From an uncultured Pseudomonadota bacterium (GTDB lineage: Bacteria; Pseudomonadota; Gammaproteobacteria; Steroidobacterales; Steroidobacteraceae): a stretch of DNA of 64,000 nucleotides. The stretch is from NCBI GenBank assembly GCA_963748005.1, contig CAVVHH010000002.1:2085336-2149335 (forward strand), written 5' to 3'. The notes under the pieces are model-generated. The model was not told where the DNA came from. It searched no databases and saw nothing but the letters and a program-made list of their open reading frames with translations. Shown here piece after piece: positions 4,609-27,603 of the stretch. Both the position numbers and the translations under genes were made by a program. The first letter of the stretch is position 1. The number at the start of each line of letters is the position of its first letter.

Positions 4609-5201
4609 GAGTCAAGCCGCAAGGGAATGGCGTTGAATGCCAACGTGATGCGCCGCTCGCCTTGATTGGGTGGTACCGCATGCATGAGATAACTGGGGAA
4701 CAACACCATGTCGCCGGGCTGCGGTGCAGGGCTGATCCACTTGTCGGCGCTGTATGGGCCCGGTGTCATGCCTTTGTGATCGTTCCTGAACAGGAAGTCG
4801 GTGCCGCCCGGCGATTTCATGAATACCGTCTGCGATCCCGGATGCGTAGGTGTCAGGTACACGACGCCCGAAATAAAACTGTTGGCGTGGTTGTGCATGG
4901 CCTGATGACCACCGGTATCCAGCACATTGACCCACATCTCCTTCAGCGACCAGCCCATGCGCTCACCGAACAGCTGGGCGCCAAAGTCGACCAGCTTGGG
5001 CGTGATGAGCGCTGCGGCATCGACGAACAGCGGACTGTCGTCCGGCCGAAGCATCTCGGTGTGCGAGAGGTTGGCGGAAGAATTGTTATCGCGGGTCGCC
5101 AATGCGGAGAAGTGCGCGATCAGGCCACTTACCAGTTCGCGGCCGAGCACTGCCGGAGCGCGCAGGAAGGGTATAGGAAAGAGACTGATCATTTCGTCCA
5201 T
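4578..5201 (-). CDS. TIGR02466-like putative 2OG-Fe(II) oxygenase superfamily protein
   Basis: 207-aa ORF with WVNVLDTGGHQAMHNHANSFISGVVYL...GDMVLFPSYLMHAVPPN (HxH/D...H double-stranded beta-helix pattern). Its 3' end overlaps the longest-ORF start of the downstream gene by 31 nt. Confidence 0.6.
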   Translation of the reverse strand: MDEMISLFPIPFLRAPAVLGRELVSGLIAHFSALATRDNNSSANLSHTEMLRPDDSPLFVDAAALITPKLVDFGAQLFGERMGWSLKEMWVNVLDTGGHQAMHNHANSFISGVVYLTPTHPGSQTVFMKSPGGTDFLFRNDHKGMTPGPYSADKWISPAPQPGDMVLFPSYLMHAVPPNQGERRITLAFNAIPLRLDSWGYVIKFGG

Positions 5202-5382
5202 AACACGTCATTGTCGCTGGCGTGTGTGACAGTTTCGAGAAGGAACAATCGGCAGCGTGGTGGGTTTCATGCGCGGCACTTGTTTGCCAGGCGGCCGGGA
5301 TCAGGTTGGTACATGTACTGCCAAATGCAGCAATTGCCAGGTCATCCGGCCTTCACATTGACATGCCAGTGTGTGACGGAAA

Positions 5383-7506: not shown

Positions 7507-7746
7507 ACAACCGTCACCACTCAGAAAATTCCCAGGGACAAGGGATCTGGTGTGCAGGTGTATTGGGTCCGTCGACAAAAGGCCAACATTGACTGCCACG
7601 TTTCAAGGAAATCACGATTCGTCGCGTCACTATCATCAAAGCTTCACATGGCTGTCACGATCCGCGGATGAAAATCTCCACGAGCAGCGCCCATGAAGCG
7701 GCGCGCCTAAGCGACGAAAGATTTTCCAGACCTGGGAGCGACCGCG

Positions 7747-10101
7747 ATGAATCTGAATCCAAAATCCCGCCAGAACAATCTGATAGCCCTTGCAGTGGCA
7801 ACAGCCGTCAGCGCCATGGTAGCCGCGCCAACGGTCGCGACGGCAGACGGCAGGAAGCCAGACAAGACATCCGGCAAGTATGTTGCCGGCGATTTTCACA
7901 ATCACACTACCTGTTCGGATGGATCGATCTCGATGCAGAAGCTGGTGCGTAAATCCACCGGTAGCGCCGCTACAAGCGAATCCGATGGTTTTGGTCTCGA
8001 CTGGTTTGTACAGGCTGGCCATGGTGGCAGCGGCAACCGCAACTGCACCCTGACAGAAGATGCCACGCTCGATACGCCCGTCTATCCCTACACCGGCCAG
8101 GCGCCCACCACCACCTGGCAGAACACTGCGGGCCCAAGCGGTCCAGTGCAACCCAAGGGCTTGACGTCGGGGTCATCGCCCAACCAGAACATGTGGCGTT
8201 GGCAGTCCATTCAGGAGTTCCAGTATCCGTTGATTGAATACCTGAATGCCTACAAGGACCGGCCGCTGTTCTTGGGTGTTGAATCGGTGGTCGCCGGTCA
8301 CGAGCATTCCTCCATGTCGGTTATTACCGGCCAGATTCCTGCTGCTCTGGACGCGGATACGCTGCCTGTTGCCCCAGTGTCAACAGCCGGTGTCAGTCGT
8401 TACACGGCGATCGGCAACGCCACCGCGCTTGCGCAATGGGAATATTGTTTTGATCGCGGTGATACGGATACCAGCCGCGGCAATACCGTTGTGGGCGGGT
8501 CCGTCGGCAACAACTGGAATTGCTCGGTTCCCGGCAGCCTGAACGCCGCCGACGTGAGCTGGAATGCCACTGCACAAAAGCTGATGCCCGCGGGCGGTGC
8601 AGGTACTGGCATCAAGGGTCATAACAAGACCGTCGAGGCCTTGAAATGGATGGTGGCCTATGCCGCGAGCGAAAGTTACTACGTGCCGGCACACCTTGAG
8701 CGAGCCGGACCTTTCAATCCAGATGGCAACAACGGCTTCAATATTGAGCACCTGCGCGACTTCAACAATGCAGCGCCAGATGTAGCCTTTGGTTTTGAAA
8801 CACAGCCGGGTCACGGTGCATCATCCGACCGCGGTGAATATGCAGTGAAGCGCAACAACATCGCTGGCGTTCAAACGGACTCGGTAGGCGGCACAACCTA
8901 CGGCGGTACAGGTGTCTATGGTGGGCAGGTCGGTGGCGTATGGGATGCGTTGCTGGGCGAAGGTCGCAACTGGTGGTTCTTTGCCAGTTCCGACTGGCAC
9001 AACCGCGGCAGCTTCGGACCGGACGATCGTCGCACGACCCAGGACTTTTTCCCTGGCGAGTACCAGCGCAACTACACGATGGTGCGTGCGGATGATCACC
9101 GGGGTCGCTGGGACGATCGGGATGAACACTCGGACAAGCATGGCCACGATGCAGACAACAAGCTCACCCCGCAGATGATTGTTGATGGTCTGCGCAGCGG
9201 CAATAACTTCGCTGCCAGCGGCCAGTTGATCGACCGTCTGGCGTTCGTTGCCTGCATCGGCAATGGCTCGCCGCATGGCCGCAGCGAGGCAGCGGTGGCA
9301 GCGCTGGCGGCAGAAGCCGCAGCCGACAATACCGACATCGACTTCAAGGGCTGCGCCACGATGGGCGAGAAGCTGGTGGTGCCGCAGGGTGGCGACGTCG
9401 TCGTCGCGATCGTGGTGCGTGACCCGGAAGGCGCCAACAACTCGCCATACACTTTCGCCAATCCCTCGCTGCTGCAAGTGGGCATCACGCAACCACTGAA
9501 CATGCCGGTGCTTGATCACATCGATGTGATCCGTGGTCTGGTGAGCGGCTACAAGACCCCGGGATCAGCGGACTACTCGGGCGAGTGGCCGCGCAACACC
9601 AACTGGTTGCACACGGATGGCACGACCGCGGATTTGTCGGTAGTGCCCGCCGCCGCCAAGAACACCACCGCTGCGGTGATCAAAGTGTTCAACGACAACA
9701 ACTGGAAAACCCGCCACGGCGATTTCGTGACGATGAGCTTCCGTATCCCGGCAGTCTCGGCTTCCCAGTATGTGCGGCTACGCGGCACCAATCTGCCGCC
9801 CGCGGTGCCGTATGAAACCGATGCCAACGGCAACCCGCTGGCGGACGTCTATACCAATGCCAGCAACAGGAACATGCTGAGCATTCCGTGCACCACACCA
9901 CACAGCGCCAGCAGCCAGTTCGACGGCTGTCCCGATCACCTGGCGACCGCTACGACGACTGCCACCAGCCCATACCTCAGCCCGATTGTGGGACAGAAGG
10001 CCGTGTCGTACGACGTGGCGGCATGGGCTGACCTGTGGTTCTACAGCAACCCGATCTATGTAGAGGTGGCAGGCGCGACCCAGATTGCTGGCGTCAAGTA
10101 A
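7747..10101 (+). CDS. Large secreted protein with an N-terminal PHP-like (polymerase/histidinol-phosphatase) metal-binding motif; function unknown
   Basis: 784-aa ORF with a signal peptide (LIALAVATAVSAMVAAPTVATA). GDFHNHTTCSDGS matches PHP motif I (hHxHTxxSDG), and a later VVAGHEHSS is present. Followed by a terminator. Confidence 0.55.
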   Translation: MNLNPKSRQNNLIALAVATAVSAMVAAPTVATADGRKPDKTSGKYVAGDFHNHTTCSDGSISMQKLVRKSTGSAATSESDGFGLDWFVQAGHGGSGNRNCTLTEDATLDTPVYPYTGQAPTTTWQNTAGPSGPVQPKGLTSGSSPNQNMWRWQSIQEFQYPLIEYLNAYKDRPLFLGVESVVAGHEHSSMSVITGQIPAALDADTLPVAPVSTAGVSRYTAIGNATALAQWEYCFDRGDTDTSRGNTVVGGSVGNNWNCSVPGSLNAADVSWNATAQKLMPAGGAGTGIKGHNKTVEALKWMVAYAASESYYVPAHLERAGPFNPDGNNGFNIEHLRDFNNAAPDVAFGFETQPGHGASSDRGEYAVKRNNIAGVQTDSVGGTTYGGTGVYGGQVGGVWDALLGEGRNWWFFASSDWHNRGSFGPDDRRTTQDFFPGEYQRNYTMVRADDHRGRWDDRDEHSDKHGHDADNKLTPQMIVDGLRSGNNFAASGQLIDRLAFVACIGNGSPHGRSEAAVAALAAEAAADNTDIDFKGCATMGEKLVVPQGGDVVVAIVVRDPEGANNSPYTFANPSLLQVGITQPLNMPVLDHIDVIRGLVSGYKTPGSADYSGEWPRNTNWLHTDGTTADLSVVPAAAKNTTAAVIKVFNDNNWKTRHGDFVTMSFRIPAVSASQYVRLRGTNLPPAVPYETDANGNPLADVYTNASNRNMLSIPCTTPHSASSQFDGCPDHLATATTTATSPYLSPIVGQKAVSYDVAAWADLWFYSNPIYVEVAGATQIAGVK

Positions 10102-12703: not shown

Positions 12704-14008
12704 TCAGCGTGGCGCCTTCAGTCCCTGTTCGATCATTCCGGTAAAGCCATCGACGATTGTGTTCTCGCCGCAGCCGGGCTTCAGTGATGAGGCACGGTTT
12801 TCAAAAATCAACGCATCATAGGCTGCGTCGTCGATGATGTAACTGACACGACCATTGCTCAGCGACACCAGTATGGTGTTCACCAGGGGCGATTTCTGCT
12901 TGAGGTGCGAGTAGATATTGGTGACTACCTCGCCGGCGAATCCCGCCAGCGCGATGTTGTTGATCATGAGCAGTCCGAGGCGCATGGGTTGCGGGTCGGC
13001 ATCGATGAAACGGATCACACCGGCCGGCGCCTGCGGGTCGCGTTGACGACCGGGACAGTAGCTGAGTTTTTCATCCGACCAGATACGCGCAGTCGTTTCG
13101 AACCTGGCGGAATCCGCGGCGCGAATCGCTTCTTCACCCAGCACACGGCCAAGCGTGTCCGAGAGCTGAAAGCCTTGTTCACCCGGCTCGCGAATCTTGT
13201 GCGTGAGCACATCGTCCAGATCCCATGACGAGAAGATCGGGTTCTGATCACCTGCGGGACCGGAAGTCCACAGCGCCACTGCCTTGTCGTGATAATAGGA
13301 CTCGATGAAGCGCGATGTTGAGCCGGGCAGGTCGCCGGTGATCTGGTCGTTGTCAGGCCCCAGCATCAGGCCATGCACACCGTAATTGACAAAGAACGCC
13401 AGCGGTTCGCCAGCCAGCGTGTCAAAGCGCAGCACCCACACTGTCTTGTCGGAGGGGCGAGCGGGATTGCGCCCCGTCTTCCAGCGATCGCCAACAAATT
13501 CGTCACGATTGATGTTGATGTCGGCACGGCCGGCAGCGAGACCCATCCTTGCAGGTTGCAGCCCCGCCTTTGCCTTGCGTACGGCATCGAACAGGGCTTG
13601 TTCTGCTTTGGCATAGAAAGCAGCGGATTGCTCACCGAGCTGGCGGCCCTGTACGGCAGGGCCGATGCCGAACACGGGCGCGTTGTGCCCGTGAGTTGCG
13701 GTAATCATGATGTTCTGCGCCGGAATGTTTAATTCCTTCTGCATGCGTTGTCGCAAAGGCAGTGTGTCCGGAGTGGAGCTGGTATCCACTGCGATGAGCG
13801 CTGCACTGGTAGCGCCATTGTCGATCACGATGGTGCGGATATAAATGTGATCGTGAATGCCCTTGAATTCGTTACCCCACACGTTCTTCAGGCCACTGGC
13901 CTGAGCAGGGGTAATATCAACCCGGGCGGCACCGACACGGAGGGCGTTCTGGCCGAACGCGGACGAGAGCGCCAACAGCAAAGGAAGAACCAGAGTGATG
14001 TGTTTCAT
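12704..14008 (-). CDS. Exported neutral/alkaline ceramidase-N-terminal-domain-like hydrolase (paralogue 1 of 3)
   Basis: ORF 12704..14017; the likely start is the ATG at 14008 (MKHITLVLPLLLALSSAFG signal). LRVGAARVDITP plus ITATHGHNAP match the family signature. It is colinear with 22987..24309 and 45444..46757. Confidence 0.7.
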   Translation of the reverse strand: MKHITLVLPLLLALSSAFGQNALRVGAARVDITPAQASGLKNVWGNEFKGIHDHIYIRTIVIDNGATSAALIAVDTSSTPDTLPLRQRMQKELNIPAQNIMITATHGHNAPVFGIGPAVQGRQLGEQSAAFYAKAEQALFDAVRKAKAGLQPARMGLAAGRADININRDEFVGDRWKTGRNPARPSDKTVWVLRFDTLAGEPLAFFVNYGVHGLMLGPDNDQITGDLPGSTSRFIESYYHDKAVALWTSGPAGDQNPIFSSWDLDDVLTHKIREPGEQGFQLSDTLGRVLGEEAIRAADSARFETTARIWSDEKLSYCPGRQRDPQAPAGVIRFIDADPQPMRLGLLMINNIALAGFAGEVVTNIYSHLKQKSPLVNTILVSLSNGRVSYIIDDAAYDALIFENRASSLKPGCGENTIVDGFTGMIEQGLKAPR

Positions 14009-14205
14009 GACCCTCACAATAAGAGATGAGCCTGGACAAGTACAAGGTATGCAAATCGCGCATCCTTGTTTGTTTACGAATCGGGTTCATCGCCAGGCAT
14101 GACGTCACTCCAGCAGTCACTGACAAGACTTCACACTTGTTAATTGCACTATCAGTTGTCGGAGCCGTACGATCTGCAGGCTTTTTTCACCACGCGGGGC
14201 TCAAC

Positions 14206-15034: not shown

Positions 15035-16606
15035 ATGAAACACACATTCCTGTGCGCCGGGGGACTGCTGACCTTGTTGGGCACTACCTTTGCGTCGCAG
15101 GCGCTGGCCGCCACCACGCATACCGCCTGCGCAGATCTTGCCGCCGCGAAATTACCCGACACAATGATTACCCTGGCCGAGGAAGTCACCAGCGGCACCT
15201 TGACCACTGGTGGCGAAAGACCGATGACCGGCCTGCCACCATTCTGCCGCGTCGCAGCGACTACCAAGCCAGCGGTCAAGTTCGAAGTCTGGCTGCCGCT
15301 CGACAACTGGAATGGCAAGTTTCAGGGCGTGGGCAATGGCGCCAACGCCGGAAATATCAGCTATGGCGCAATGGTCACAGCGCTGAAGCGCGGTTATGCA
15401 ACCGGCAGTACGGACACCGGTCATCAAACCGAGAATGCTCGCGATGCGTCCTGGGCTTTGGGACATCCGGAGCTGGTCACCGACTTCGGCTATCGCGCCA
15501 TCCATCTGATGACCGACAACAGCAAGAAGATCGTCAACCAGTTCTATTCACAGCCGGCAGCACATTCGTATTTCGTTGCCTGCTCCACGGGCGGGCGCCA
15601 GTCGATGATGGAAGCGCAACGCTTTCCGGAAGATTACGACGGCATCATTGCCGGTGCGCCGGCATTCAACTGGTCGCGCTTTCAGACCGGCGGGCACGCA
15701 TGGGATGCGGCGGCGGTGAACAAGGATCCCGAGAGTTATCTGCCGACGTCGAAGCTCAGGGCGTTGGGCGATGCGGTGAACGCGGCATGCGACAAGCTGG
15801 ATGGCATTGCCGACGGCATTCTCAACGATCCGCGCCAATGCAGCTTCGACGCAAAGGCGCTGCAGTGTGCGGCGGGCGTAGACGATGCCAGTTGCCTGAC
15901 GCCGAAGCAGGTAAAGGCCGTTAATGACATCTGGGCAGGCTCGCGCACCGCCAAGGGCGAGGTGATCTATCCCGGCATCTCGCGTGGCGCCGAAGCGGCG
16001 CAGGGCGGCTGGAACGCCTACACGACGGGCACCGGCCCGATGACAGGCACACACTGGGATCAGGCCGAGAACACGATGAAGTACATCATCGTTGAAGATC
16101 CCAACTGGAAGTTGAGCAGCTTCGATGTCGAAAAGGACGCCGCTTATGCTGTGAAGAAGGTCGGCAAGACCATGGATGCGTTCGATGCGGATCTGTCGCG
16201 CTTTCGCGCCCGTGGCGGTCGTCTGTTGATGTACCACGGCTTCAACGATCCGAACATCGCGGCGCAGAACACGATCAACTACTACGAGCAGGTGGTAGCA
16301 AATGTGAAGAAGAAGTCGAAAGGGCAGGACGCGCTGGCACAGACGCAGGAATTCGCGCGGCTATTCCTGGCGCCGGGTGTGCTGCACTGTGGTGGTGGCC
16401 CGGGCCCGAGCAACTTCGACATGGTGACCGTGCTGGAACAGTGGGTCGAGCAGAAGCAGGCGCCGGAGCGCATCATCGCGTCGCACTCGACCAACGGTAC
16501 CGTCGATCGCACGCGCCCGCTGTGTGCGTATCCCAAGATGGCGTCTTACACGGGGAGCGGCAGTACGGATGATGCTGCGAATTTCGTGTGTAAGGATGCC
16601 CAGTAA
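15035..16606 (+). CDS. Tannase/feruloyl esterase family alpha/beta hydrolase (exported)
   Basis: 523 aa with a signal peptide. FCRVAATTKPAVKFEVWLPLDNWNGKFQGVGNGANAG and CSTGGRQ (nucleophile motif) are typical of the tannase/feruloyl esterase family. Confidence 0.85.
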   Translation: MKHTFLCAGGLLTLLGTTFASQALAATTHTACADLAAAKLPDTMITLAEEVTSGTLTTGGERPMTGLPPFCRVAATTKPAVKFEVWLPLDNWNGKFQGVGNGANAGNISYGAMVTALKRGYATGSTDTGHQTENARDASWALGHPELVTDFGYRAIHLMTDNSKKIVNQFYSQPAAHSYFVACSTGGRQSMMEAQRFPEDYDGIIAGAPAFNWSRFQTGGHAWDAAAVNKDPESYLPTSKLRALGDAVNAACDKLDGIADGILNDPRQCSFDAKALQCAAGVDDASCLTPKQVKAVNDIWAGSRTAKGEVIYPGISRGAEAAQGGWNAYTTGTGPMTGTHWDQAENTMKYIIVEDPNWKLSSFDVEKDAAYAVKKVGKTMDAFDADLSRFRARGGRLLMYHGFNDPNIAAQNTINYYEQVVANVKKKSKGQDALAQTQEFARLFLAPGVLHCGGGPGPSNFDMVTVLEQWVEQKQAPERIIASHSTNGTVDRTRPLCAYPKMASYTGSGSTDDAANFVCKDAQ

Positions 16607-16639
16607 GTCTCAGCATCGCCTGCTTGCGGGGTCTTTGAT

Positions 16640-16777
16640 CTAAGGAAGGTCTGATTTACTTGTCATTTCGAACGCAGTGAGAAATCTTTCTTTGCTTGGA
16701 TACTTGGCTATCAATCACTTGCAAGATTTCTCCCTTCGGTCGAAGTGACAGTGATGGGTTAATCAGACATTCCCTAA
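16640..16777. repeat. ~138-bp imperfect palindrome (MITE-like element) at the left edge of the low-GC island
   Basis: Outer arms: TTAAGGAAGGTCTGAT.. / ..ATCAGACATTCCCTAA. Inner arms: GTCATTTCGAACGCAGTGAGAAATCT (16662-16687) against the reverse complement of AGATTTCTCCCTTCGGTCGAAGTGAC (16724-16749), about 22/26 matches. Confidence 0.6.
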
Positions 16778-16835
16778 TCCATTCGGTTTGAGCGTGTCGA
16801 AGCTTGCTTCTGCAGGCTCAGCCCGAACTGGAGAA
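16778..16835. repeat. Second nested hairpin repeat
   Basis: TTCGGTTTGAGC (16782-16793) pairs with GCTCAGCCCGAA (16817-16828), with an inner GAAGC-TT-GCTTC hairpin. One frame reads NPFGLSVSK...SARTG, reminiscent of the widespread PFVLSLSKH/FDKLRANG-type intergenic repeats. Confidence 0.4.
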
Positions 16836-17192
16836 GACCGTCCTTAATGTTCCGACTTAATTAAAGCCGCAAAAAACCACAATGGAGTTGGAAACAAACT
16901 AATGTGGCTTTCGGCCCTGAGCAGTCACTCGACCCTAGACGCCAATTTTCCAGAGATCGGACATTCGAGTACCGCTTGGTGAGTCTACGGCGGTGTGGAT
17001 TCCAAGACATTCAGATTGACAAGCTCTTTGCTTGGCGGCAGAAGCGGCAAGGTTTTCGGCGAAAGCGTTGCTGCCAAGAACGACATTGACGCTGGGCAGT
17101 CTTTCTGGCGCTGCCAACGATTCCCAGCATGTGAAGGTACCCTACGTATATGATTGGTCAGTGATTAGGGAGCGCTCGGGAGATAACAAAAA

Positions 17193-18857
17193 TTGGACAT
17201 TAGAACTGCATGGGTTAAGCCACCCCCTCAGGTAGGTGGGTTGGATCATCTTGCCGTACAAGCGCCATGTATCAGTGTTTACGGACGCCTGCTGCCGGGC
17301 ATCACTAACGTTACTGACCGCGCCCGGTACTATTCTTTCTATCCGTGGCTGCTCTGGGCATTCGACAAGCGCGGCTACACCAAATTTGATGACGACTTCG
17401 TTGAGCGATTTCGACGCGCCGATTGTCTTTTCTCCCTGATCGCCGAGCGCCATGCGGCAGTTTCAGAAGATGCTCGCGAGGATCATGCGACCGCTGTTGT
17501 GGGTAGCAATACGCTTTCGCCCGTGGCCAACGGATTGGATTCGGGGGGTAGTACGACGCTGTCGAAGTACTCCCTCCGTACAGGCGCAGACATTCGCTAC
17601 TTTAAGAACAAGCTGGGCGGTCTCGGCCAGTACTACTTGGGTGTGTTGAGAGAACTGGCTATCCTCGACGGTGACACATCAAGCGGCGTTCGGTACACAC
17701 GGCAAGTTGGACAGTTTGTAGCTGAGCACATGGGTGAGGGATTCAACGGCGAGCTTTTCATGGACGTTGTTGAATCGGACCTAGTCAGTGCAAAGCAGTT
17801 AGATGACCTGAGTGGCCTTTGTCCCTGTCAATTAACTAAGAATATTGGCGAGGCAAGCATCCTCAGCGACTTGTTCTTCGTCCGGAGTAAGTTTTACGAC
17901 GTTGACGCACTACCCCGGCGCAGGTCGCTGCAACTGATTCTGCATTTGGCGGGCGAGTTATTAAATGAAGAAATCGGCCTGTATGAGGAAACATTTCGCG
18001 GCTGTGCTTACGCTGGTGCGTTGCCCAGCGGAAAGCCTTGGTTACCACCCATTTCATTGCTAAACACCAAGGAGAAGTGGGCGATCTATTCACGGAACGA
18101 ATTGCTGTCCATCGCAGTCCAGGGACTGTTCACTGTCTTGCTCGATGCATATCAGGAATCTGGTCTGCATTTTGACTCAAGCGCTGAAGTTGCAGACTGG
18201 TTCGTATCACAGCCGGAAGCTATCCAGGCGCTCGTCCAACTAGGGCCGGACCACACGTTATCAACCTGCATCAATACTTGCGGCACCTGGCTCCCACCGC
18301 TCGCCGAGTGGACACATGCAACTCACGAAGTAATGTTGGCCGAGGATATTGCTCAGTTGTCCCGACAGGCGAGTTCTGAGGAGAGTCGCCGCGACATTGT
18401 GGTCGCGTCACTTAGGGTGCTAGTTGCGCTGGCTCACAGAAAAGTAGGTCATGAGAATCCCTATGGGGACATGATTTTTGACGAGAGCTTCTTTCGGTAT
18501 TACCCGATCAACTTGGTATCGTTCAATGCACACACGGCCAGTACATGGTCCTCATTAACCATGTGCGACCTGCTTCGCTGGTTGCTGCTGAACTGGGGAA
18601 TTGAGCTTCACCTGCGAGTCGCGCTGAGGAAACTTCGAGGCCAATCGCAATCGACGTTCCGGATCCGGCCGACTGAGGACCGGGGATTGGAGGTTATTGA
18701 AGTGCCGCCAGCCGTCCATACCCGACCCCGCTTCAATCAGGCCGTACGTGTACTTAGGGATATTGGAGCGCTCAAGCGAGTCGAGAAGGACGGCGTGGAT
18801 AACTGGATACCAAGTGACCTTGGCTTGGCGATGCTGGAGTTAGGCGATGCACCCTAA
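17193..18857 (+). CDS. Hypothetical protein, 554 aa, no recognisable family; first gene of the candidate defence cassette
   Basis: Long ORF with no overlapping competitor. It starts at a TTG (GGGAG 11 nt upstream); there is no in-frame ATG until codon 180. No signal peptide or TM is evident. Its stop overlaps the downstream ATG by 11 nt. GC is lower than the flanks. Confidence 0.7.
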   Translation: MDIRTAWVKPPPQVGGLDHLAVQAPCISVYGRLLPGITNVTDRARYYSFYPWLLWAFDKRGYTKFDDDFVERFRRADCLFSLIAERHAAVSEDAREDHATAVVGSNTLSPVANGLDSGGSTTLSKYSLRTGADIRYFKNKLGGLGQYYLGVLRELAILDGDTSSGVRYTRQVGQFVAEHMGEGFNGELFMDVVESDLVSAKQLDDLSGLCPCQLTKNIGEASILSDLFFVRSKFYDVDALPRRRSLQLILHLAGELLNEEIGLYEETFRGCAYAGALPSGKPWLPPISLLNTKEKWAIYSRNELLSIAVQGLFTVLLDAYQESGLHFDSSAEVADWFVSQPEAIQALVQLGPDHTLSTCINTCGTWLPPLAEWTHATHEVMLAEDIAQLSRQASSEESRRDIVVASLRVLVALAHRKVGHENPYGDMIFDESFFRYYPINLVSFNAHTASTWSSLTMCDLLRWLLLNWGIELHLRVALRKLRGQSQSTFRIRPTEDRGLEVIEVPPAVHTRPRFNQAVRVLRDIGALKRVEKDGVDNWIPSDLGLAMLELGDAP

Positions 18858-21396
18858 ACTCTCGCTACTCGATGAATTGCGTAGGGGCGGCTATGAATCT
18901 TCGCTGATTACGACCTTCAATGCCTATCTGCCGTTTTACGAAGAGGTCGTTTTGCGGCGTCTTATGAGCGCAGGGGTTCGGCATAACGTGCTGATGATGG
19001 ATTCGCAGCAATACGCAGCTTCGCTGGGTAGCCATCCACCGCGCCTGGCCGGTCGCCGGTACACGCTGCTTCCTGTCGATGTTCCGGGAGCATTTCATCC
19101 CAAACTTATTTTCCTCGTGGGTAAGAGTAAGGGGCTCGTAGCAATTGGCAGTCACAATATGACGCTATCCGGTTTTGGCTTTAATCGTGAACTAACGAAT
19201 GTAGTAACGATTAAAGGCGCTAACGACTCAGCAGGTATTGCCGTTGCGCGAGATGTTTGGAAGGAGGTCGAGTTGTGGCTGGAAATCGCGTCCAAGCATG
19301 TACCTGGGCAAGTGGTCGACATGGTGCTGCGAGTTAAAGAATCAGCACCATGGCTAGATACGGAATCTGTTCCAGACGAAGCGATCAAAGTTATTGCGGG
19401 TCGTCCCGGCGGCAAGCCGCTATGGGAACAATTCACACAGCTAACCTCTGGTAGTGCTACTGACATCCTGTTAAGCGGCGCCTTCTTTGATGAACAGCTA
19501 AAATTCATAGAAAGAATCAAACAGAATCTGAAGCCGAACCACCTAGTGATCGGTGTTGACCCTAAGTCAGTTCAAATTTCAAATAAGGCAAGATCGCTTC
19601 TTGACGTATCGCTAGTTAACGCCAGCACCCTCGCAGCAGAAAAGCCGGCACAGGAAAAAGGTACCGGTTATTTACATGCGAAGGCCATATTCGTACGTCA
19701 GACAGATGGCGAAACGATCTTCGCCTCCGGCAGCGCTAATCCCAGCACGCCCGCGTGGCTGGCGACCGATACAACCGGCAACGTAGAGTTGATGCTGGTA
19801 CGTCGAGGTGAGAGCGCAGTGCTTGCTGCTGAAGAAACGGGGTTCTTGGGCCTCCTCGAGATGCCGGTGCTGGATGATAATGACTGGACTGCCATTCACG
19901 AGAATCACACAAAGAACAAGGTATCCGAGCCACCAGGCTACGCTAGCGGGATCGCAGTTGTTGAGGATGGGGCAGTCCATATCCAGATGGCACTACTCGA
20001 CCATCTGGTTGATCCGGAGTTCGTACTGCTGAACGAACAAGGCCAGGAGGTCGATCGGTCAAAGCGTGTCCATGTGGGTGGCAATCATGCGCTAATTGAA
20101 TTCCCGCCCGACAAGCTGACGACGGCAGTAATGCTCGAGTGTTTCATCTCCGATCAACTGGTGTTGAAATTGTTGTTGCATCATTCACGCGCCATCGAAG
20201 AGCAGGCTCGCACTGGTGTCCAGCGTAAGTTCAAGGAGGCGCTGCTGAGTCTGAACAGTGGCTCACCCAATTTCGCGCTGCTACTGGAGTGTTTGGACAA
20301 GATGTTATTTTCAGATGAGCGCAATGCGTCTGCCCCGCTGCTCCGTGAAGCTGGCGCGCGGGACCAGTCAGAAACCGAAGACAACCTTGATCCAGGGTCC
20401 TTGGCAATCGATGTAAAAGACATAAAGAAGAGAAAATCCAAGCGGCGCTTGCTCCACACCGGCGATCTGGCGTACTTGCTGGATACCTTGATCTATCACC
20501 TCAAATATCACGAAGAAAAAGCGATCGAGGAGCTGGATCGGTTTGGTCGAAATGAAGAGGAGCAGGTCGATTCCGACGATGAAGACGACTCAGTCGCGGC
20601 GAGGGAACTGGTAGATGAACAGAACCAGCTTTTAGCTCTTTGCCATTCAAAAGTTCACACTGTGGTTAATCGCATGTTGGCTCAATTTGCAGCATATACA
20701 GCCGGCAAACAGCCGCTCGCCAACGTGATAGTGCGCCTGCTGGGGGTCTTGGCAGTTCTTCGCGAACTCCGATCCTGCGATGGGCGTTCTACTTGGGTCG
20801 AAAAGGGTCAGACCGCAGTACCTGAAGAGGAGCGTGTTCGGTTGCTGAATACCGTCATGCTCACTCTGTTCGAAGGTAAGACCTCGCTACTGAACCTCGA
20901 TCCTCTTGGCGAGGAGTTCGCGCAGAGCGACGATGTGGCGCGTCTTAAGGGTCTTGTGCTCTGGCTGGCCTGGGACTGCGGCCTGACGCTGGACCTTCGT
21001 AAGCCTTTCATGGAAGACATTGAGGATCGGCGCCAACGACTGCTAGAAAATGCCATGGTATTGGCCTTGGCTCAGCTCATTCGTAATGACGATGTGGTGA
21101 TTGACGAAGCGCGCCAAAGCATCGGCAGCCTCTCCACCAGTGAGATGGAATGGCTCAAAGACGTAGAGAAGCTGGCTTCGCAATGTGAGTCACTCCAGTC
21201 TGGTCGCGAAGGTCTGAGAGATGCCGTCCATGCGGAGCCGGGTGACATCGCCATCCACAAGACAGTGAAAAACTGGACGCTTCGGATCGTCGACAGTAGC
21301 GATGAGGAACGCATCTCGCTGATCAAGCTGGTCGATTCAGATGACGATCTGATCCCGTTCAAGGCAGATCACGTCTTGGTAGGAAAGCTTTCGTAG
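18847..21396 (+). CDS. PLD-superfamily (Nuc/BfiI-like nuclease fold) protein with two degenerate HKD motifs and a long helical, charged C-terminal region
   Basis: 849 aa; GGAG lies 7 nt upstream of the ATG. Motif 1 is FHPKLIFLVGKSKGLVAIGSHNMT (H84, K86). Motif 2 is LHAKAIFVRQTDGETIFASGSANPS (H277, K279). No signal peptide or TM. Confidence 0.75.
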   Translation: MHPKLSLLDELRRGGYESSLITTFNAYLPFYEEVVLRRLMSAGVRHNVLMMDSQQYAASLGSHPPRLAGRRYTLLPVDVPGAFHPKLIFLVGKSKGLVAIGSHNMTLSGFGFNRELTNVVTIKGANDSAGIAVARDVWKEVELWLEIASKHVPGQVVDMVLRVKESAPWLDTESVPDEAIKVIAGRPGGKPLWEQFTQLTSGSATDILLSGAFFDEQLKFIERIKQNLKPNHLVIGVDPKSVQISNKARSLLDVSLVNASTLAAEKPAQEKGTGYLHAKAIFVRQTDGETIFASGSANPSTPAWLATDTTGNVELMLVRRGESAVLAAEETGFLGLLEMPVLDDNDWTAIHENHTKNKVSEPPGYASGIAVVEDGAVHIQMALLDHLVDPEFVLLNEQGQEVDRSKRVHVGGNHALIEFPPDKLTTAVMLECFISDQLVLKLLLHHSRAIEEQARTGVQRKFKEALLSLNSGSPNFALLLECLDKMLFSDERNASAPLLREAGARDQSETEDNLDPGSLAIDVKDIKKRKSKRRLLHTGDLAYLLDTLIYHLKYHEEKAIEELDRFGRNEEEQVDSDDEDDSVAARELVDEQNQLLALCHSKVHTVVNRMLAQFAAYTAGKQPLANVIVRLLGVLAVLRELRSCDGRSTWVEKGQTAVPEEERVRLLNTVMLTLFEGKTSLLNLDPLGEEFAQSDDVARLKGLVLWLAWDCGLTLDLRKPFMEDIEDRRQRLLENAMVLALAQLIRNDDVVIDEARQSIGSLSTSEMEWLKDVEKLASQCESLQSGREGLRDAVHAEPGDIAIHKTVKNWTLRIVDSSDEERISLIKLVDSDDDLIPFKADHVLVGKLS

Positions 21397-21807
21397 ACGT
21401 AGACGGTTCCGGGCACGGCGTTAGCGGTAATTCGCGCGAGCGATACGCTTCAATGACTTTCAATTACTGGTTTGGAACAGCATTGACGTCCGCTCCGGGT
21501 CGTTAGTGTCGTTCTTGTTCTCGACTATATTTGCTGGGAACACTGGAATTGGTACACCTCTGGGCTTCGACGACCGCGCGAGTCTCGCCTGCTTCTTGGC
21601 GACATGGTCTTCAATGATGATCTGATTGCTCTCCAGACGTGCATCGCAACCTTGGTGAATCCATCCGGCGCGCGTGCCTAGAACATCAGGATGCTGGAGT
21701 TCATCGTGGACTTGGCTGCCATCCAGCGATATATGAGCGTATCGAACTGGCCCATGTTGACAGCCGTGCGCCGTGCGATGGCGAACGGCTGTCGGGAAAG
21801 CACTGTT

Positions 21808-22974
21808 TCAATTGGCAAGAAACGCGAACACGGCCGGACTTGGAATCGACATGGATTCACCGGTCGGTGTCAGCTTTCCAGTCGAACGTTCAACGCTGAA
21901 CACCACCACCGAATTCGAGACATCGTTGGCGAGCAGCAGCCAGCGTCCCGTGGGATCGAAGGTAAAACTGCGCGGTGACTTGCCTTGCGCGGCAATGCGC
22001 TGAATTTCGGCGAGCTTGCCGGTGCTCTTGTTCACTTCGTACACGACGATGCTGTCCTGATCGCCGCGCAACGTTAAATACAGAAAGCGACCGTCGCGCG
22101 ACATGCCGATTTCAGCCGAGCTCTTGGCATTGCCGGTATACCCGGCGGGATATGCTGGCACGGCCTCAACGAGTTGCAGGGTCGCCTGTTTCGCATCCCA
22201 GCGATAGATCAGCACTTCGGCGCTGAGCTCAGTGTTCACATACAGGAATTTTCCATTCGGATGAAACACCTGATGGCGCGGACCCGTGCCGGGCTGTGAT
22301 GCCACAAAGGGTGTTGCTGCCGGTGTCAGCGCGCGTGTTTTCCCGTCGAAGTGATAGACGAAGGTGCGATCTGCGCCCATATCGGTTGAGATCAGGTAAC
22401 GGTTCGTGGGATCGACAGCGGAGGAGTGGGGGTGAGGTGCGGCTTGCCGGGGATGCGGGCCGGTGCCGTATTCCTTCTGGCTTGATGCAACCGGTCCAAG
22501 CTGTCCGTCCGACAGAACAGGCACGGCTGTTACATCACCACTGGCGAACGAGGAACCGAACAGTGTTTTTGATTTTGCATCCAGATACAGATAAGTCGTG
22601 TCTCGTCCACCGGAGCTGACCCGGTTGAGTTCCTTCAACGTGCCCGTGGCTTTGTCTGCTGCAAAGCTGTGAATGTTTGAATTCACCGTCAGACCACCTT
22701 CGGCATTCGCCACCGAATACACCACCGGCAGTTTCGGATGTGTTACCACCCAGGCGGCATTCTCCAGTTCAGCCTGAAGACCAATCATGGTCAGCTTGCC
22801 GGTGTTGCTGTCAAAACGAGCGGCATAAACGCCCACTTTGGGACGCGGCGTACCTGCAGCAGGCGGGGCGCCTGCACGCGTGCCTATGTAGAGCAGGTTG
22901 CTGGTGGCTTCTTTGGCTTGCACTGTCAGCGCCACCAATCCAAGGCACAGTGCCACGAATGTCTGTCGTTTCAT
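21808..22974 (-). CDS. Exported lactonase, 7-bladed beta-propeller family (6-phosphogluconolactonase/muconate-lactonising-enzyme-like)
   Basis: 388 aa with a signal peptide (FVALCLGLVALTVQA). It has the repeated propeller pattern and motifs GTGPRHQVFHPNGKFLYVNTELS and PRSFTFDPTGRWLLLAN, typical of this lactonase family. Confidence 0.75.
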   Translation of the reverse strand: MKRQTFVALCLGLVALTVQAKEATSNLLYIGTRAGAPPAAGTPRPKVGVYAARFDSNTGKLTMIGLQAELENAAWVVTHPKLPVVYSVANAEGGLTVNSNIHSFAADKATGTLKELNRVSSGGRDTTYLYLDAKSKTLFGSSFASGDVTAVPVLSDGQLGPVASSQKEYGTGPHPRQAAPHPHSSAVDPTNRYLISTDMGADRTFVYHFDGKTRALTPAATPFVASQPGTGPRHQVFHPNGKFLYVNTELSAEVLIYRWDAKQATLQLVEAVPAYPAGYTGNAKSSAEIGMSRDGRFLYLTLRGDQDSIVVYEVNKSTGKLAEIQRIAAQGKSPRSFTFDPTGRWLLLANDVSNSVVVFSVERSTGKLTPTGESMSIPSPAVFAFLAN

Positions 22975-22986
22975 CGTTGGTTTCCT

Positions 22987-24309
22987 TCAGAGATGCTTGT
23001 TGATCATGTCCACTACAGTGTTGACGATGCCATTCTCGACACAGCCACGCACAGCAGAGTTGCTTTGAACTTCAGCGGTGGGCGTGTCATAGGCCGCATC
23101 ATCGACGAAGTAACCGGTGCGGTCGTTCGCCATCGACACCATGATGGTGTTGGCCAGCGGCGAGGCCTGCTTGAGATGATAGTAGATGTTGGTCAGCACT
23201 TCGCCCGATACCGATGCCAGCGCGATCTTGTCGATCAGAATCAGGCTGAGGCGGATGGGCACGCCGGTGATCTGTTCCGGCTTCATGCCGCCCAGCTGGA
23301 AGTACTGGTGCTCTCTGGCGCCCTCGCGCAATGGGCAGGTGATGATGCGTTCTTCGGCTGACACCTTGGTCGCCGCAATCGTCGGCCGGATCTGGTTGGC
23401 GACGCGCACGACTTCCGCGCCGAGCATGAAGCCCTGCGCGTTCATCACCTCGAACGCAGCCGGGCGTTTGTCCTTGTTCTCGGCAGCGGTGGGCAGGTCG
23501 TAAATCCGCGGGTCCTGATCGCCGCCGGGGCCCATTGTGAATAGCGCGACCACCTTGTCGCCGTACTGCTGCTCGACATAGCGCTCGGCCGCGCCGGGCA
23601 GGTCGCCGCTGACCATCTTCTCGCGGCGCGTCACCACCGGGTGCACACCGTAATTGAACATCACTGCCAGCGGTTCGCCCGCCAGTGTCTCGAACTTGAG
23701 CACCCACACGGTTTTGTCCGAAGGACCGTTCTCGTTGACGCCATAAACCCAGCCCTTGGGCGTATAGACATCGCGGTTCACATTGACGTCGGCATGGCCG
23801 GTACCGAGTCCTATGCGCGCCGGTTGCAGCGCCGCCTTGGCCTGCTTGAGCGCGGCAACGATGCGGTCGTTGACGAAGCTGGTGTAGACATCGACTTCAG
23901 GTCCACCGGTCTTGGCATTGGCGCCCGGTGTGCGATTGCCCAGCATGGGCGCGCTGTGATCGTGGGTGGCAGCAATGATGATGTGGCTGGCGGGAATCCC
24001 GAGTTCCTTCTGGATGCGCTCGCGCACCGGCAGCGTATTGCCCAACTGGTTGTTGTCGAGTGACACCAGCGCAACGGAGTTGCTGCCGTTGTCGATGATC
24101 ACTACGCGGGCGAAGATGGGGTCGTGCACACCGATAAAGTTTTCACCGTCATTCGGATTCACCTTGATCAGACTCGTAGGCGTGATATCCAGCTTGGCCA
24201 CGCCGACACGCAGAGCGTTTGCGTCCGCTGCCCAGAGCGATTGGGTTGACAGCGCCAGCAAGCAACACGCCGAGCCCAGCAGATTGGCGATCAGGCCGCG
24301 ATTATTCAC
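22987..24309 (-). CDS. Exported neutral-ceramidase-like hydrolase (paralogue 2 of 3)
   Basis: ORF 22987..24435. The preferred start is the GTG at 24309 with GGGGGAGG 5 nt upstream, giving a signal peptide. LRVGVAKLDITP and IIAATHDHSAP are present, and it is colinear with paralogue 1. Confidence 0.7.
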   Translation of the reverse strand: MNNRGLIANLLGSACCLLALSTQSLWAADANALRVGVAKLDITPTSLIKVNPNDGENFIGVHDPIFARVVIIDNGSNSVALVSLDNNQLGNTLPVRERIQKELGIPASHIIIAATHDHSAPMLGNRTPGANAKTGGPEVDVYTSFVNDRIVAALKQAKAALQPARIGLGTGHADVNVNRDVYTPKGWVYGVNENGPSDKTVWVLKFETLAGEPLAVMFNYGVHPVVTRREKMVSGDLPGAAERYVEQQYGDKVVALFTMGPGGDQDPRIYDLPTAAENKDKRPAAFEVMNAQGFMLGAEVVRVANQIRPTIAATKVSAEERIITCPLREGAREHQYFQLGGMKPEQITGVPIRLSLILIDKIALASVSGEVLTNIYYHLKQASPLANTIMVSMANDRTGYFVDDAAYDTPTAEVQSNSAVRGCVENGIVNTVVDMINKHL

Positions 24310-24578
24310 ATTAACCTCCCCCGGATATTGTTCGTAATTAGTCTTGTATTGGTGGGACTGGGCGATGCACAACCAGTCGACCACGTCGCCAAGTCTGTCC
24401 GATGTGAAGCCACATCTAAATACCACGGGCAGCAAAATTGCGCAGATTGAATCACCGGGTCTTTACAATCGATCCATGTGTGAAGCGGAAGCGACCCACA
24501 ATTCGCATGTCAGCAGTTGCAGCGACTGCGTGACCGGGTTCTGTAAAGAAATGACAACAATCCACCTGGGGTAAAGAC

Positions 24579-25772: not shown

Positions 25773-25899
25773 AGCGCCCAGCACCTGGTTGCTGCTGACT
25801 ACGAGCCGGATCACAAGAGGCTTAAGGAGTACTTATAGCTGAGCCATCTCTGTGCGCGTATGCTTGCCATCGGACCATGGACAGAAAGGAGGATCTGAG

Positions 25900-27603
25900 A
25901 TGGCTATATCTGACTTCCAGGTTACTGGTAAGAACCCGAAAGCGTTCTTTACGCTGAAACTCCATCGCGGCGACGGGATGTGTCTTATCGCGATGAACTG
26001 GAAGAAGGGCAAACCACCAAATGACTTCGTGGGGTTCGCGATTGAAAGCAAGCCACCGGGCGGCGACAGCTTTTTCCCCCTGAACAATCGCATAGCGTTT
26101 GCGGGCGCAGATGGTTCGATCAATCCGCTGCAATTATCGACGCTTGTTTCGCCCATTCAGAAATTTCGCTGGGTGCATTTTCCACGCAACGCCAACCTCG
26201 ACGGCGAATTCACGTATCGGGTTACACCCATCTTCATGGATGCCGAAGACCGGCTCAGTCAGGGCAGCCCGCAGGAAGCCGGCATTGAGCTTCGCCGCGA
26301 AACTTATCCGGGACAAGTCAACGTTACCTTTACGCGTGGGTTCGTTTCTTCGCAGGCGTTTGTAGATCGCTTCGAAAAATCCGGACCGATCAAGACACTT
26401 CTGCCCGCCAAGGCGGCCGACGGCCTGAAGTTCAAACCGACGCACCCCAAGGCGAAGGAAGCGCTCGCGTGGATGGGATTCGAAACCCGTGAAAGCATCT
26501 TTGATCTTCTCGATCAGGCGATAAAAGAAAAGGCCGAGGTTCGCGTCGTGGCCTACGACCTGAGCGAGCCGGAGGTTGTCGGGCGGTTTGCGAAGCTCGG
26601 CAAGCGCCTGAAAATCATCATCGACGATAGCAAGGAGCACGGCGAACCAGCGTCCGGCGAGTCCCAGGCTGCAAAGCGACTCGAAAAAACCGCTGGCAAG
26701 GCGAACGTGAAGCGGCAGCACATGAAAAGCCTGCAGCACAACAAGATGATCATCGTTGCTGGCGCGACCAGGAAAGTTGTGTTCGGCTCCACCAATCTCA
26801 GCTGGCGCGGACTGTATGTACAGGCCAACAATGCCCTTATTGCCGAGGGAACCAAGCCAGTCGAACTCGCGCTCGCGGCGTTCGACAATTACTTCAACAA
26901 TGAAACGACATTCGGCGATACCAAATCGGCAACACTGACCAACCTGGGGCTCAAGAACATCGACGCACAAGTTGCATTTTCTCCACATTCTTCCGCAAAT
27001 TCCCTGCTCGATGAGATCGGTAAAGACATCGACAGGACCACCTCGTGCTTGTTCTATTCGCTCGCTTTTCTCTCGATTACCCCGGGCGTCGTCAAGGAAG
27101 CAATCAGGAAGGTCTCAAAGAAACCGGGCATCTTCGTGTACGGCATCGCCGACAAGAAAGTTGGCGGCATCGATCTGCAGATGCCGAATGGAAACATCGC
27201 TCCAGTATTTGCCGCTGCGCTCGACAAGAATATTCCGGCGCCTTTCAACAAGGAACCCACGGGCGGTGGCGGCAATCGCATGCATCACAAGTTCGTCGTG
27301 ATCGACTTCGACAAGCCAACTGCACGGGTTTACCTCGGCTCTTACAATTTCTCGATCCCGGCCGACCAGAAGAACGGCGAAAACTTGCTGGTGATCCGCG
27401 ATCGACGTATCGCGGTGTCCTATACCATCGAAGCGTTGCGCATCTTCGACCACTATCATTTCCGGGTCGCCCAACGCGAAGCCAAGAAAGCCAAGAAGCC
27501 GCTGCAGCTTGCCAAGCCACCGAGCAAAGCTGGCGAGAAGCCCTGGTGGGCCGAAGACTATACGGATGCGCGAAAAATCCGCGATCGCGAGTTGTTTGCG
27601 TAG
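25900..27603 (+). CDS. Phospholipase D-like protein with two HKD motifs and a ~200-aa N-terminal domain of unknown function; no signal peptide
   Basis: The ATG at 25900 has AGGAGG 7 nt upstream. Motifs: LQHNKMIIVAGATRKVVFGSTNLS and MHHKFVVIDFDKPTARVYLGSYNFS (canonical HxKx4D...GSxN). Confidence 0.85.
   Translation: MAISDFQVTGKNPKAFFTLKLHRGDGMCLIAMNWKKGKPPNDFVGFAIESKPPGGDSFFPLNNRIAFAGADGSINPLQLSTLVSPIQKFRWVHFPRNANLDGEFTYRVTPIFMDAEDRLSQGSPQEAGIELRRETYPGQVNVTFTRGFVSSQAFVDRFEKSGPIKTLLPAKAADGLKFKPTHPKAKEALAWMGFETRESIFDLLDQAIKEKAEVRVVAYDLSEPEVVGRFAKLGKRLKIIIDDSKEHGEPASGESQAAKRLEKTAGKANVKRQHMKSLQHNKMIIVAGATRKVVFGSTNLSWRGLYVQANNALIAEGTKPVELALAAFDNYFNNETTFGDTKSATLTNLGLKNIDAQVAFSPHSSANSLLDEIGKDIDRTTSCLFYSLAFLSITPGVVKEAIRKVSKKPGIFVYGIADKKVGGIDLQMPNGNIAPVFAAALDKNIPAPFNKEPTGGGGNRMHHKFVVIDFDKPTARVYLGSYNFSIPADQKNGENLLVIRDRRIAVSYTIEALRIFDHYHFRVAQREAKKAKKPLQLAKPPSKAGEKPWWAEDYTDARKIRDRELFA

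Follow-up and report, generated by a model that had tools for sequence, protein, structure and literature searches.

In Azaca, the gene for ZacA is followed by the gene for ZacB. The system was reportedly described by Millman et al. in 2022. ZacA carries a DUF6361 domain, ZacB is a phospholipase D (PLD) enzyme and ZacC is a superfamily 2 (SF2) helicase; cleavage of phage T4 DNA needs all three proteins as well as the Walker A motif of ZacC, and conserved residues of ZacA are dispensable (bioRxiv 10.1101/2025.07.10.664194). The mechanism of Azaca is barely understood, and the role of ZacA is unassigned. Here we describe a pair of coupled genes, A and B, in a 64,000-nucleotide stretch of DNA (the window; contig CAVVHH010000002.1, positions 2,085,336 to 2,149,335) from an uncultured bacterium of the Steroidobacteraceae. 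Gene A encodes a distant ZacA/DUF6361-like partner protein and gene B a PLD protein of the HKD type. The unit includes no NTPase, helicase or methylase, in agreement with an earlier note on this DNA, made from the sequence alone, which had pointed to the absence of such partners. We estimate a probability of about 0.6 that the two genes form a self-contained system that moves horizontally and most likely serves anti-phage or anti-plasmid defence, and we regard the A–B pair as a credible candidate defence system.

Gene A (17193–18857, + strand) is an open reading frame (ORF) of 554 aa with a TTG start, and gene B (18847–21396, + strand) is an ORF of 849 aa with an ATG start. The coupling junction (18836–18857, + strand) was read from the sequence of the segment 18830–18859, gatgctGGAGttaggcgATGcacccTAAac. 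The GGAG at 18836–18839 is separated by a 7-nt spacer from the ATG of B (18847–18849), and the TAA stop of A is located at 18855–18857, giving an overlap of 11 nt between the two genes. The same-strand arrangement, the overlap and the position of the GGAG are those given in the earlier note. In an alignment of A, nearly all of 32 homologues start with a Met in the column of the TTG codon, followed by xIxTAWVKPP, and this start is therefore supported. Homologue searches gave 1,145 hits for A and 804 hits for B, so that both are real genes and not chance ORFs. Almost all of these homologues are hypothetical or unnamed, with a few B homologues named as phospholipase D-like domain proteins, and in many genomes the A and B homologues have adjacent locus tags. 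A profile search through 1.84 billion cluster representatives (at 50% identity) found 1,592 relatives of A, 328 of them below 1e-30.

A synteny scan with one genome per species returned 104 loci, 80 of which were kept. They span the Alpha-, Beta-, Gamma- and Deltaproteobacteria, Acidobacteriota, Myxococcota, Gemmatimonadota, Fibrobacterota, Spirochaetota and Armatimonadota. In about 75 of the 80 loci, B is the next gene after A, and the overlap between the stop of A and the start of B is kept across the loci, typically at 4, 8, 11 or 14 nt. The coupled two-gene cassette of the earlier note is supported by these loci, and the synteny of A and B homologues, which it had proposed to check, is found. 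Remnants of B are present in three further loci, and A is truncated in two of the three loci without B. The identities of A and B to the window proteins are correlated across the loci (Pearson r = 0.96, n = 60), and A is the better conserved of the two, by about 9.5 identity points. When 1,101 flanking ORFs were clustered all against all, no third conserved gene emerged, the largest other cluster being present in 8 loci. In 21 of 66 loci, no gene on the same strand lies close to the pair, either upstream or downstream. As there is no third conserved gene and many loci stand alone, the unit consists of two genes.

Translational coupling and strict co-inheritance are also consistent with a toxin-antitoxin (TA) or abortive-infection (Abi) module, in which A would restrain a toxic PLD nuclease B, and release of B upon infection or loss of the element would kill the host cell, in place of a selective attack on the DNA of the invader. 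The stronger conservation of A fits such a module, as do the plasmid copies that adjoin partition and conjugation genes and the presence of AbiE, HipA and other TA modules among the neighbours. Moreover, the conserved, predicted-disordered residues 1–18 of A could be an inhibitory peptide. However, A is a multidomain protein far larger than typical antitoxins, with a DNA-binding-like domain of its own. Two loci (L026 and L064) keep an intact A with B lost or truncated, and among the sampled loci none clearly has B without A; a toxin-first logic predicts this pattern of A without B, but plain decay predicts it equally. The place of the pair inside type I restriction-modification (R-M) operons, like that of type IV enzymes, fits direct restriction. 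We consider a TA or Abi module unlikely, and prefer a directly acting defence system.

The pairing extends to distant relatives. When the PLD half of B was used as a tblastn query, 33 plasmid records with a B-like PLD protein were found, including records from Bacteroidota, Actinomycetota and haloarchaea. At every plasmid locus inspected, a gene for a protein of about 485–630 aa overlaps or abuts a PLD gene of about 790–890 aa. The upstream proteins from Myroides (hhalign 100%, E 1e-40), Prevotella (99.8%, E 1.6e-27), the archaeon Halorussus (98.4%, E 6.5e-15) and Streptomyces (97.3%, E 2.3e-11) are full-length homologues of A, and the alignment of the archaeal B-like protein to the B profile is limited to the PLD half. 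Judged from these sequence comparisons, the A–B pairing is much older than the close family. The cassette is horizontally mobile and subject to turnover, as indicated by its low GC content and low GC content at third codon positions (GC3; see below), its patchy taxonomic spread, its presence on conjugative and mobilizable plasmids, and the decayed copies in five loci (L026, L074, L075, L078 and L080). No A homologue was found in phage records or among 2.9 million viral contigs. On a plasmid of Roseomonas mucosa (L095, 4413–8559), an intact B-like gene is preceded by a putative A homologue that is split into two ORFs (405 and 107 aa). An IS21 element and genes for QueC-like, TatD and P-loop NTPase proteins are its neighbours.

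Protein B contains the two HxK...G(S/T)xN motifs of the PLD/HKD superfamily, at the residues given in the earlier note. The first is formed by H84-P-K86 and G101-S-H-N104 (19096–19158, + strand), and the second by H277-A-K279 and G295-S-A-N298 (19675–19740, + strand). All ten motif residues are invariant across 30 homologues at 38–60% identity to B. Neither copy has the canonical Asp of HxK(x)4D; the residues five positions after the Lys are V91 and R284, which are variable among the homologues, and 'degenerate HKD' is therefore a fair label for this protein. The Pfam model PLDc_2 matches B with 27.2 bits against a cut-off of 27.0, the best stretch being residues 79–121. No NCBIfam model matches A or B, and a sequence search of the Protein Data Bank (PDB) with the family profiles gives nothing for A and only noise for B.

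The AlphaFold2 (AF2) model of B has a mean predicted local distance difference test (pLDDT) score of 79.6, with values of about 85–94 over most of residues 10–345. Residues ~1–345 form a two-lobed PLD/HKD domain in this model, with low-confidence loops near residues 101–120 and 261–280. A comparison of the model against the PDB with Foldseek finds human PLD1 (E 1.3e-6), PPK1 (5.2e-6 and 1.9e-5) and R.NgoAVII (1.2e-3), with NucT, Nuc and Zucchini among the lower-ranked matches, and so groups this N-terminal part with proteins of the PLD fold that are two-lobed or dimeric. The predicted structure therefore has the PLD fold, and the single-chain PLD architecture proposed earlier for B is borne out by it. 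The model and the motifs support B as a PLD-fold protein with two lobes in a single chain, in which the catalytic His, Lys and Asn residues are intact.

Beyond the PLD part, the AF2 model of B contains a beta domain (residues ~365–446), a low-confidence charged linker (~491–567), a helical domain (~580–790) and a small C-terminal beta domain (~800–849). No confident structural match was obtained for any of these segments. At residues 567–578 (20545–20580) there is an invariant acidic motif, GR(S/N)EEEQ(V/I)GxDD, which comes after a low-confidence segment (491–563) that holds a basic KKRKSKRR patch. These charged motifs in the predicted-disordered region could be an autoinhibitory or partner-binding element. 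In Lysobacteraceae bacterium NML93-0399 (L064, 11622–12878), an intact A is followed by an ORF of 418 aa without the PLD domain, which matches only residues 448–844 of B (hhalign 99.2%); this ORF is a natural variant that lacks the PLD part, or it arose by in-frame deletion. The C-terminal half of B can therefore be separated from the PLD domain as a module.

Protein A is cytoplasmic and mostly helical, and its AF2 model has a pLDDT of 87.5 and a predicted template modelling (pTM) score of 0.87. The most conserved block of this protein, residues 32–76 (LLPGITNVTDRARYYSFYPW...; 17286–17420, + strand), is invariant or nearly so in two family alignments and is also the segment that matches the ZacA model. 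A C-terminal winged helix-turn-helix is predicted for residues ~490–550 (18660–18842, + strand), with the AF2 secondary structure E-E-H-E-E-H. This predicted winged helix is the single feature that points to a sensor role for A. With Foldseek, A has no match at E below 0.5 among the PDB structures and the viral folds of BFVD. The short local matches, to ArsR-type regulators (root-mean-square deviation 3.5–4.1 Å) and to RIOK2 chains (1.5–2.0 Å), are weak (E 6–8), and their position within A was not reported. As a confident model has no structural relative here, A may hold a sensor or regulatory domain of a new kind. Residues 1–18 (17193–17246), xIxTAWVKPPxQxGGLDH, are among the most conserved parts of the family, yet they are predicted to be disordered (pLDDT 32–42). 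They are a candidate B-binding peptide.

Pfam gives no match for A at E<1, and some members of the family have weak matches to families with a winged helix, namely HA2_N, HTH_45, Mrr_N and AbiEi_3_N. Walker A and B motifs were found in neither A nor B. The DUF4007 domain has a tripartite HTH-wHTH-wHTH architecture (PMC12839542). An assignment to DUF4007/SspB was rejected, because this profile matches neither A nor any of 56 family members at E≤1. The earlier statements that A lacks Walker and DUF4007 motifs and that both proteins lack signal peptides and transmembrane segments hold: no signal peptide was found in A or B, and with maximal 19-residue Kyte–Doolittle hydropathies of 1.15 (A) and 1.56 (B), no transmembrane segment is predicted in either.

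The earlier note could place A in no family and recognized no named system in the pairing, and both of these views have to be revised. The ZacA model of PADLOC matches A at E 0.0033, with residues 32–76 aligned to positions 46–88 of the 396 in the model. Among 56 diverse members of the A family, 48 match ZacA (best E 7.9e-8), which is the only PADLOC family that they match recurrently, and 9 match Pfam DUF6361 (best 8.4e-4, below threshold). The weak ZacA match of the window protein is therefore not noise, and the sequence matches indicate distant homology of one segment, not family membership. For B, the best PADLOC matches are PDC-M27B and ZacB (about 1e-12), followed by PbeA and DrmC. The ZacB model matches residues 215–326 at E 1.3e-12 (45 bits), and PDC-M27B scores as well. 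All 30 members of the B family match ZacB (best 4.6e-17), with only the PLD part aligned, and all 30 match PDC-M27B; DrmC and PbeA are matched by 13 of the 30 each. Neither A nor its family members match PDC-M27A. Because of the recurrent ZacA, DUF6361 and ZacB matches, the A–B pair is best read as a distant, larger, helicase-less relative of the ZacA–ZacB module. PADLOC and DefenseFinder presumably would not call the locus Azaca.

The surroundings of the pair in other genomes were surveyed with the two nearest ORFs on each side in about 62 loci, compared with Pfam. The upstream neighbours include Methylase_S, N6_Mtase, HsdM_N, UvrD, DEAD, PIN7, DUF4357 and YhcG_C proteins, in addition to N6_N4_Mtase, AAA_5, patatin, Eco57I, MmeI_Mtase, Fic and DUF4268 proteins. 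The downstream neighbours include ResIII, HSDR_N, T1R_D3, AbiEii, AbiEi, AbiGi, HipA_C, RhuM and Xre/MbcA/ParS proteins. Several of the upstream neighbours are matched by the type I methylase and specificity models of PADLOC. The gene order is hsdS-DUF4268-A-B-hsdR in Microbulbifer, hsdS-DUF4357-A-B-hsdR in one Pseudomonas locus and DUF4357-PIN7-A-B-hsdR in another, and hsdM-hsdS-A-B-hsdR on a Myroides plasmid. On a Mycobacterium avium plasmid, the pair is located between an AbiEii gene and a methyltransferase/restriction-endonuclease pair. PglX/BrxX/MmeI-like methylases are found near the pair in 7 loci. The earlier note had proposed that homologues of the pair be sought next to defence genes. 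A recurrent location beside known defence genes is indeed found in unrelated genomes and on plasmids, but not in the window itself.

Two further arrangements were observed in this survey. In four Burkholderiales loci (L041, L043, L047 and L056; ~4727–9949), a gene for a 1,740-aa fusion of RecQ-like and UvrD-like helicases is located directly upstream of A–B on the same strand. On the conjugative plasmid p1 of Sphingobium sp. CAP-1 (L083, 3973–13638), genes for an SNF2-related protein (1,037 aa), a hypothetical protein (587 aa), the A-like protein, the B-like protein and a GIY-YIG nuclease follow each other on the same strand. This string of genes may be a larger composite system around the pair.

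These helicases, together with the location of the pair between hsdS and hsdR in several loci and the PglX-like methylases near it, raise the question of whether the pair acts as an accessory nuclease module and relies on a motor from outside the unit, which might be HsdR, a BREX helicase, UvrD or RecQ, in the way that ZacA and ZacB depend on ZacC and its Walker A motif (bioRxiv 10.1101/2025.07.10.664194). The RecQ–UvrD fusion and the SNF2 gene on Sphingobium plasmids would be such motors. However, the helicases that co-occur with the pair come from unrelated families, and no helicase family is conserved beside it, the largest neighbour cluster reaching 8 of the 80 loci. The pair stands alone in 21 of 66 loci, and the large ORFs that were tested in the 64-kb window include no gene for a helicase, an R-M protein or another defence protein. 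Dependence on such a motor has a low probability in our assessment.

In the window, the cassette is flanked by a tannase/feruloyl esterase gene upstream (15035–16606) and a lactonase gene downstream (21808–22974, − strand), with ceramidase-like, HupE, HbpS-like and PepSY genes farther away. Its GC content is 53.3%, compared with a window mean of 58.5% (standard deviation 2.4%, in windows of 4.2 kb), and it ranks fifth lowest among 299 such windows. The GC3 of the two genes is 0.57–0.59, compared with 0.62–0.77 in 7 of 8 neighbouring genes checked, the exception being the HbpS-like gene (0.575). The earlier description as a compositionally distinct insert between hydrolase genes is therefore correct. 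The low-GC segment (16607–21807, 52.9% GC) comprises the cassette and its non-coding flanks of 586 nt upstream and 411 nt downstream, and it was probably acquired horizontally. No tRNA or integrase gene that could mark an insertion was found around the cassette, and there are no significant flanking repeats; a 17-nt inverted pair at 17075/21501 is at chance level, with about one such pair expected by our estimate. The low-GC segment has no match in Rfam, and a promoter and terminator scan found no excess over shuffled sequence. An inverted repeat of 28 nt (16661–16750; 86% complementary, 34-nt loop), without an Rfam match, is located just 3′ of the tannase stop, inside the 586-nt non-coding stretch upstream of gene A.

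An empty-site comparison shows that the tannase orthologues of relatives (78–83% identity) have different neighbours, and synteny is not kept. In a relative with a 78%-identical tannase (L087, 13135–15030), a TIR_2-TPR protein is encoded 3′ of the tannase instead of A–B, which suggests that the neighbourhood 3′ of the tannase is variable. The same genome as the window also has a second tannase paralogue, with 66% identity (P0409).

The metabolic, hydrolase-rich content of the window, with its tannase, lactonase and ceramidase-like genes and a second PLDc_2 gene, would be relevant to a function outside defence, in which B would be a phospholipid- or polyphosphate-type PLD enzyme, or the pair a factor for the DNA repair or maintenance of mobile elements. 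The top Foldseek matches of B, human PLD1 and polyphosphate kinase 1, agree with this, and the PLDc_2 score of B only just reaches the Pfam threshold. On the other hand, the neighbourhood is not conserved, as the tannase of relatives has other neighbours, and by its low GC content the cassette is foreign to the DNA around it. In 80 other genomes, the genes that recur beside the pair are of the R-M, Abi, TA and helicase types. Signal peptides and transmembrane segments are absent from both proteins, and the closest profile matches of B are defence PLDs. A function of this kind is quite improbable. Both this explanation and dependence on a motor encoded elsewhere are weakened by the defence-type profile matches, by the number of loci in which the pair stands alone and by its changing surroundings.

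Other genes of the window were also noted. The second PLD-family gene (25852–27603, + strand; 583 aa) is unrelated to B and lies 4.5 kb from the cassette, on its downstream side; PLDc_2 matches two stretches of this gene (E 9.6e-20), which may encode a cardiolipin-synthase-type enzyme. The region lies between two neutral/alkaline ceramidase-like genes (12704–14017 and 22987–24435, both − strand), which have the N-terminal domain of Ceramidase_alk (E 1e-13 and 4e-15). An ORF of 784 aa (7747–10101, + strand) adjoins a TonB-dependent receptor gene and has no Pfam match at E≤1e-5.

Several observations weigh against a defence function with a relation to Azaca. The cassette is a solitary low-GC stretch amid metabolic genes, and the lack of defence genes among the large ORFs tested in the window counts in the same direction. 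The association with defence genes elsewhere is qualitative, being made without a matched control set. As the best structural match of B is a phospholipase, human PLD1, the fold alone cannot separate a nuclease from a lipid hydrolase. The ZacA similarity of the window protein is weak and confined to ~45 residues, and its DUF6361 score is below the Pfam threshold. The ZacB similarity, at ~45 bits, could come from shared PLD chemistry, not from specific common descent. Moreover, with ZacC being indispensable and the conserved residues of ZacA dispensable, the analogy with Azaca does not explain a pair that has no helicase.

We infer that B is a nuclease, that it forms a complex with A, and that the pair has a defence phenotype. 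In the mechanism that we propose, B would be the effector, a single-chain two-lobed HKD phosphodiesterase that cuts DNA independently of metal ions via a phosphohistidine, using H84, K86 and N104 together with H277, K279 and N298. This proposal is made by analogy with Nuc, BfiI/NgoAVII, ZacB and the END nucleases. Metal-free cleavage through a phosphohistidine is established chemistry for Nuc and BfiI-type enzymes. Translational coupling would ensure that A is made in fixed proportion with B, and A would bind both B and DNA, and target or gate the nuclease. The pair may share ancestry with the ZacA–ZacB module and work without the SF2 helicase, in which case the extensions of A (~150 residues relative to the ZacA model) and B (~260 residues relative to the ZacB model) could replace the contribution of ZacC. 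The trigger might be modified or otherwise foreign DNA. This is a guess, from the preference of Azaca for phage T4 DNA and from the hsdS–hsdR slot that the pair shares with the type IV-like TgvAB.

A broader proposal can be made tentatively, although we consider it doubtful as a whole. The A–B pairs would represent a widespread class of two-component, restriction-like immune systems of bacteria and archaea without an NTPase, in which an A protein with a novel fold recognizes foreign, possibly modified, DNA and licenses the PLD nuclease B. The pair would then be the minimal ancestral core, from which Azaca arose by the addition of a helicase.

If the pair protects cells, it would be a compact 4.2-kb defence system without an NTPase that reaches into the archaea. 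As a natural helicase-less version, it would show what a core of ZacA-like and ZacB-like proteins does alone. Its recurrent location between hsdS and hsdR confirms this slot as a place to seek new systems. The pair is worth cloning, yet it is one of many PLD-based candidates.

A description of the A–B pair was not found in the literature on Azaca, DUF6361, PDC-M27 and two-gene systems with a PLD protein, and a comparison with the known systems is made here. DISARM and Mokosh need helicase partners. DISARM DrmC, Mokosh MkoB, PbeA and PDC-M27B have a PLD domain in common with B. However, the helicase, DUF1998, methylase and CxC ABC ATPase partners of DISARM, Mokosh and PbeABCD are neither adjacent to the pair in the window nor conserved in the related loci. 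PbeA is a fusion of an HKD domain with an SF2 helicase, found together with a CxC ABC ATPase and DndE (PMC10853773). PbeABCD was rejected as an assignment because of this fusion and its different partners.

PrrC is an anticodon nuclease that is carried as cargo embedded in type I R-M operons, and TgvAB is reportedly GmrSD-like. In several genomes the A–B pair fills the same hsdS–hsdR slot as this type of cargo, and it is a two-gene unit, but the protein families of TgvAB and PrrC are unrelated to A and B. TgvAB of Vibrio cholerae VPI-2 is such an R-M-embedded cargo as well (PMC11411939).

The PLD-family restriction enzymes and modification-dependent nucleases (BfiI, R.NgoAVII, SauUSI and the END nucleases) have the same HKD/PLD nuclease chemistry class as B, and they combine a nuclease module with a separate recognition module. 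The END nucleases also resemble A–B in having no cognate methyltransferase in the unit (PMC12191111). There are two differences. The enzymes of this group have one HKD copy per chain and dimerize, whereas B has two copies in one chain. In addition, their recognition domain is fused to the nuclease, whereas A is a separate, putatively DNA-binding polypeptide. The END nucleases were rejected as an assignment because they are encoded by a single gene, with a PLD domain and an inactive EndoIII domain (PMC12191111).

The comparison with Azaca is the closest. A is 554 aa long against the 396 positions of the ZacA model, and only ~45 residues match; B is 849 aa long against the 586 positions of the ZacB model, and only the PLD part matches; the scores of both are far below the level of orthologues. 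The ZacC helicase with its Walker A motif was not found among the large ORFs tested in the window, and no such helicase is conserved in the 80 related loci. On the other hand, a ZacA/DUF6361-like protein is followed by a PLD protein that matches the ZacB model, in the same order as ZacA and ZacB, with the PLD catalytic residues intact and with defence contexts for both systems. From these sequence relationships, the A–B pair is not wholly unprecedented, and is a helicase-less variant related to Azaca.

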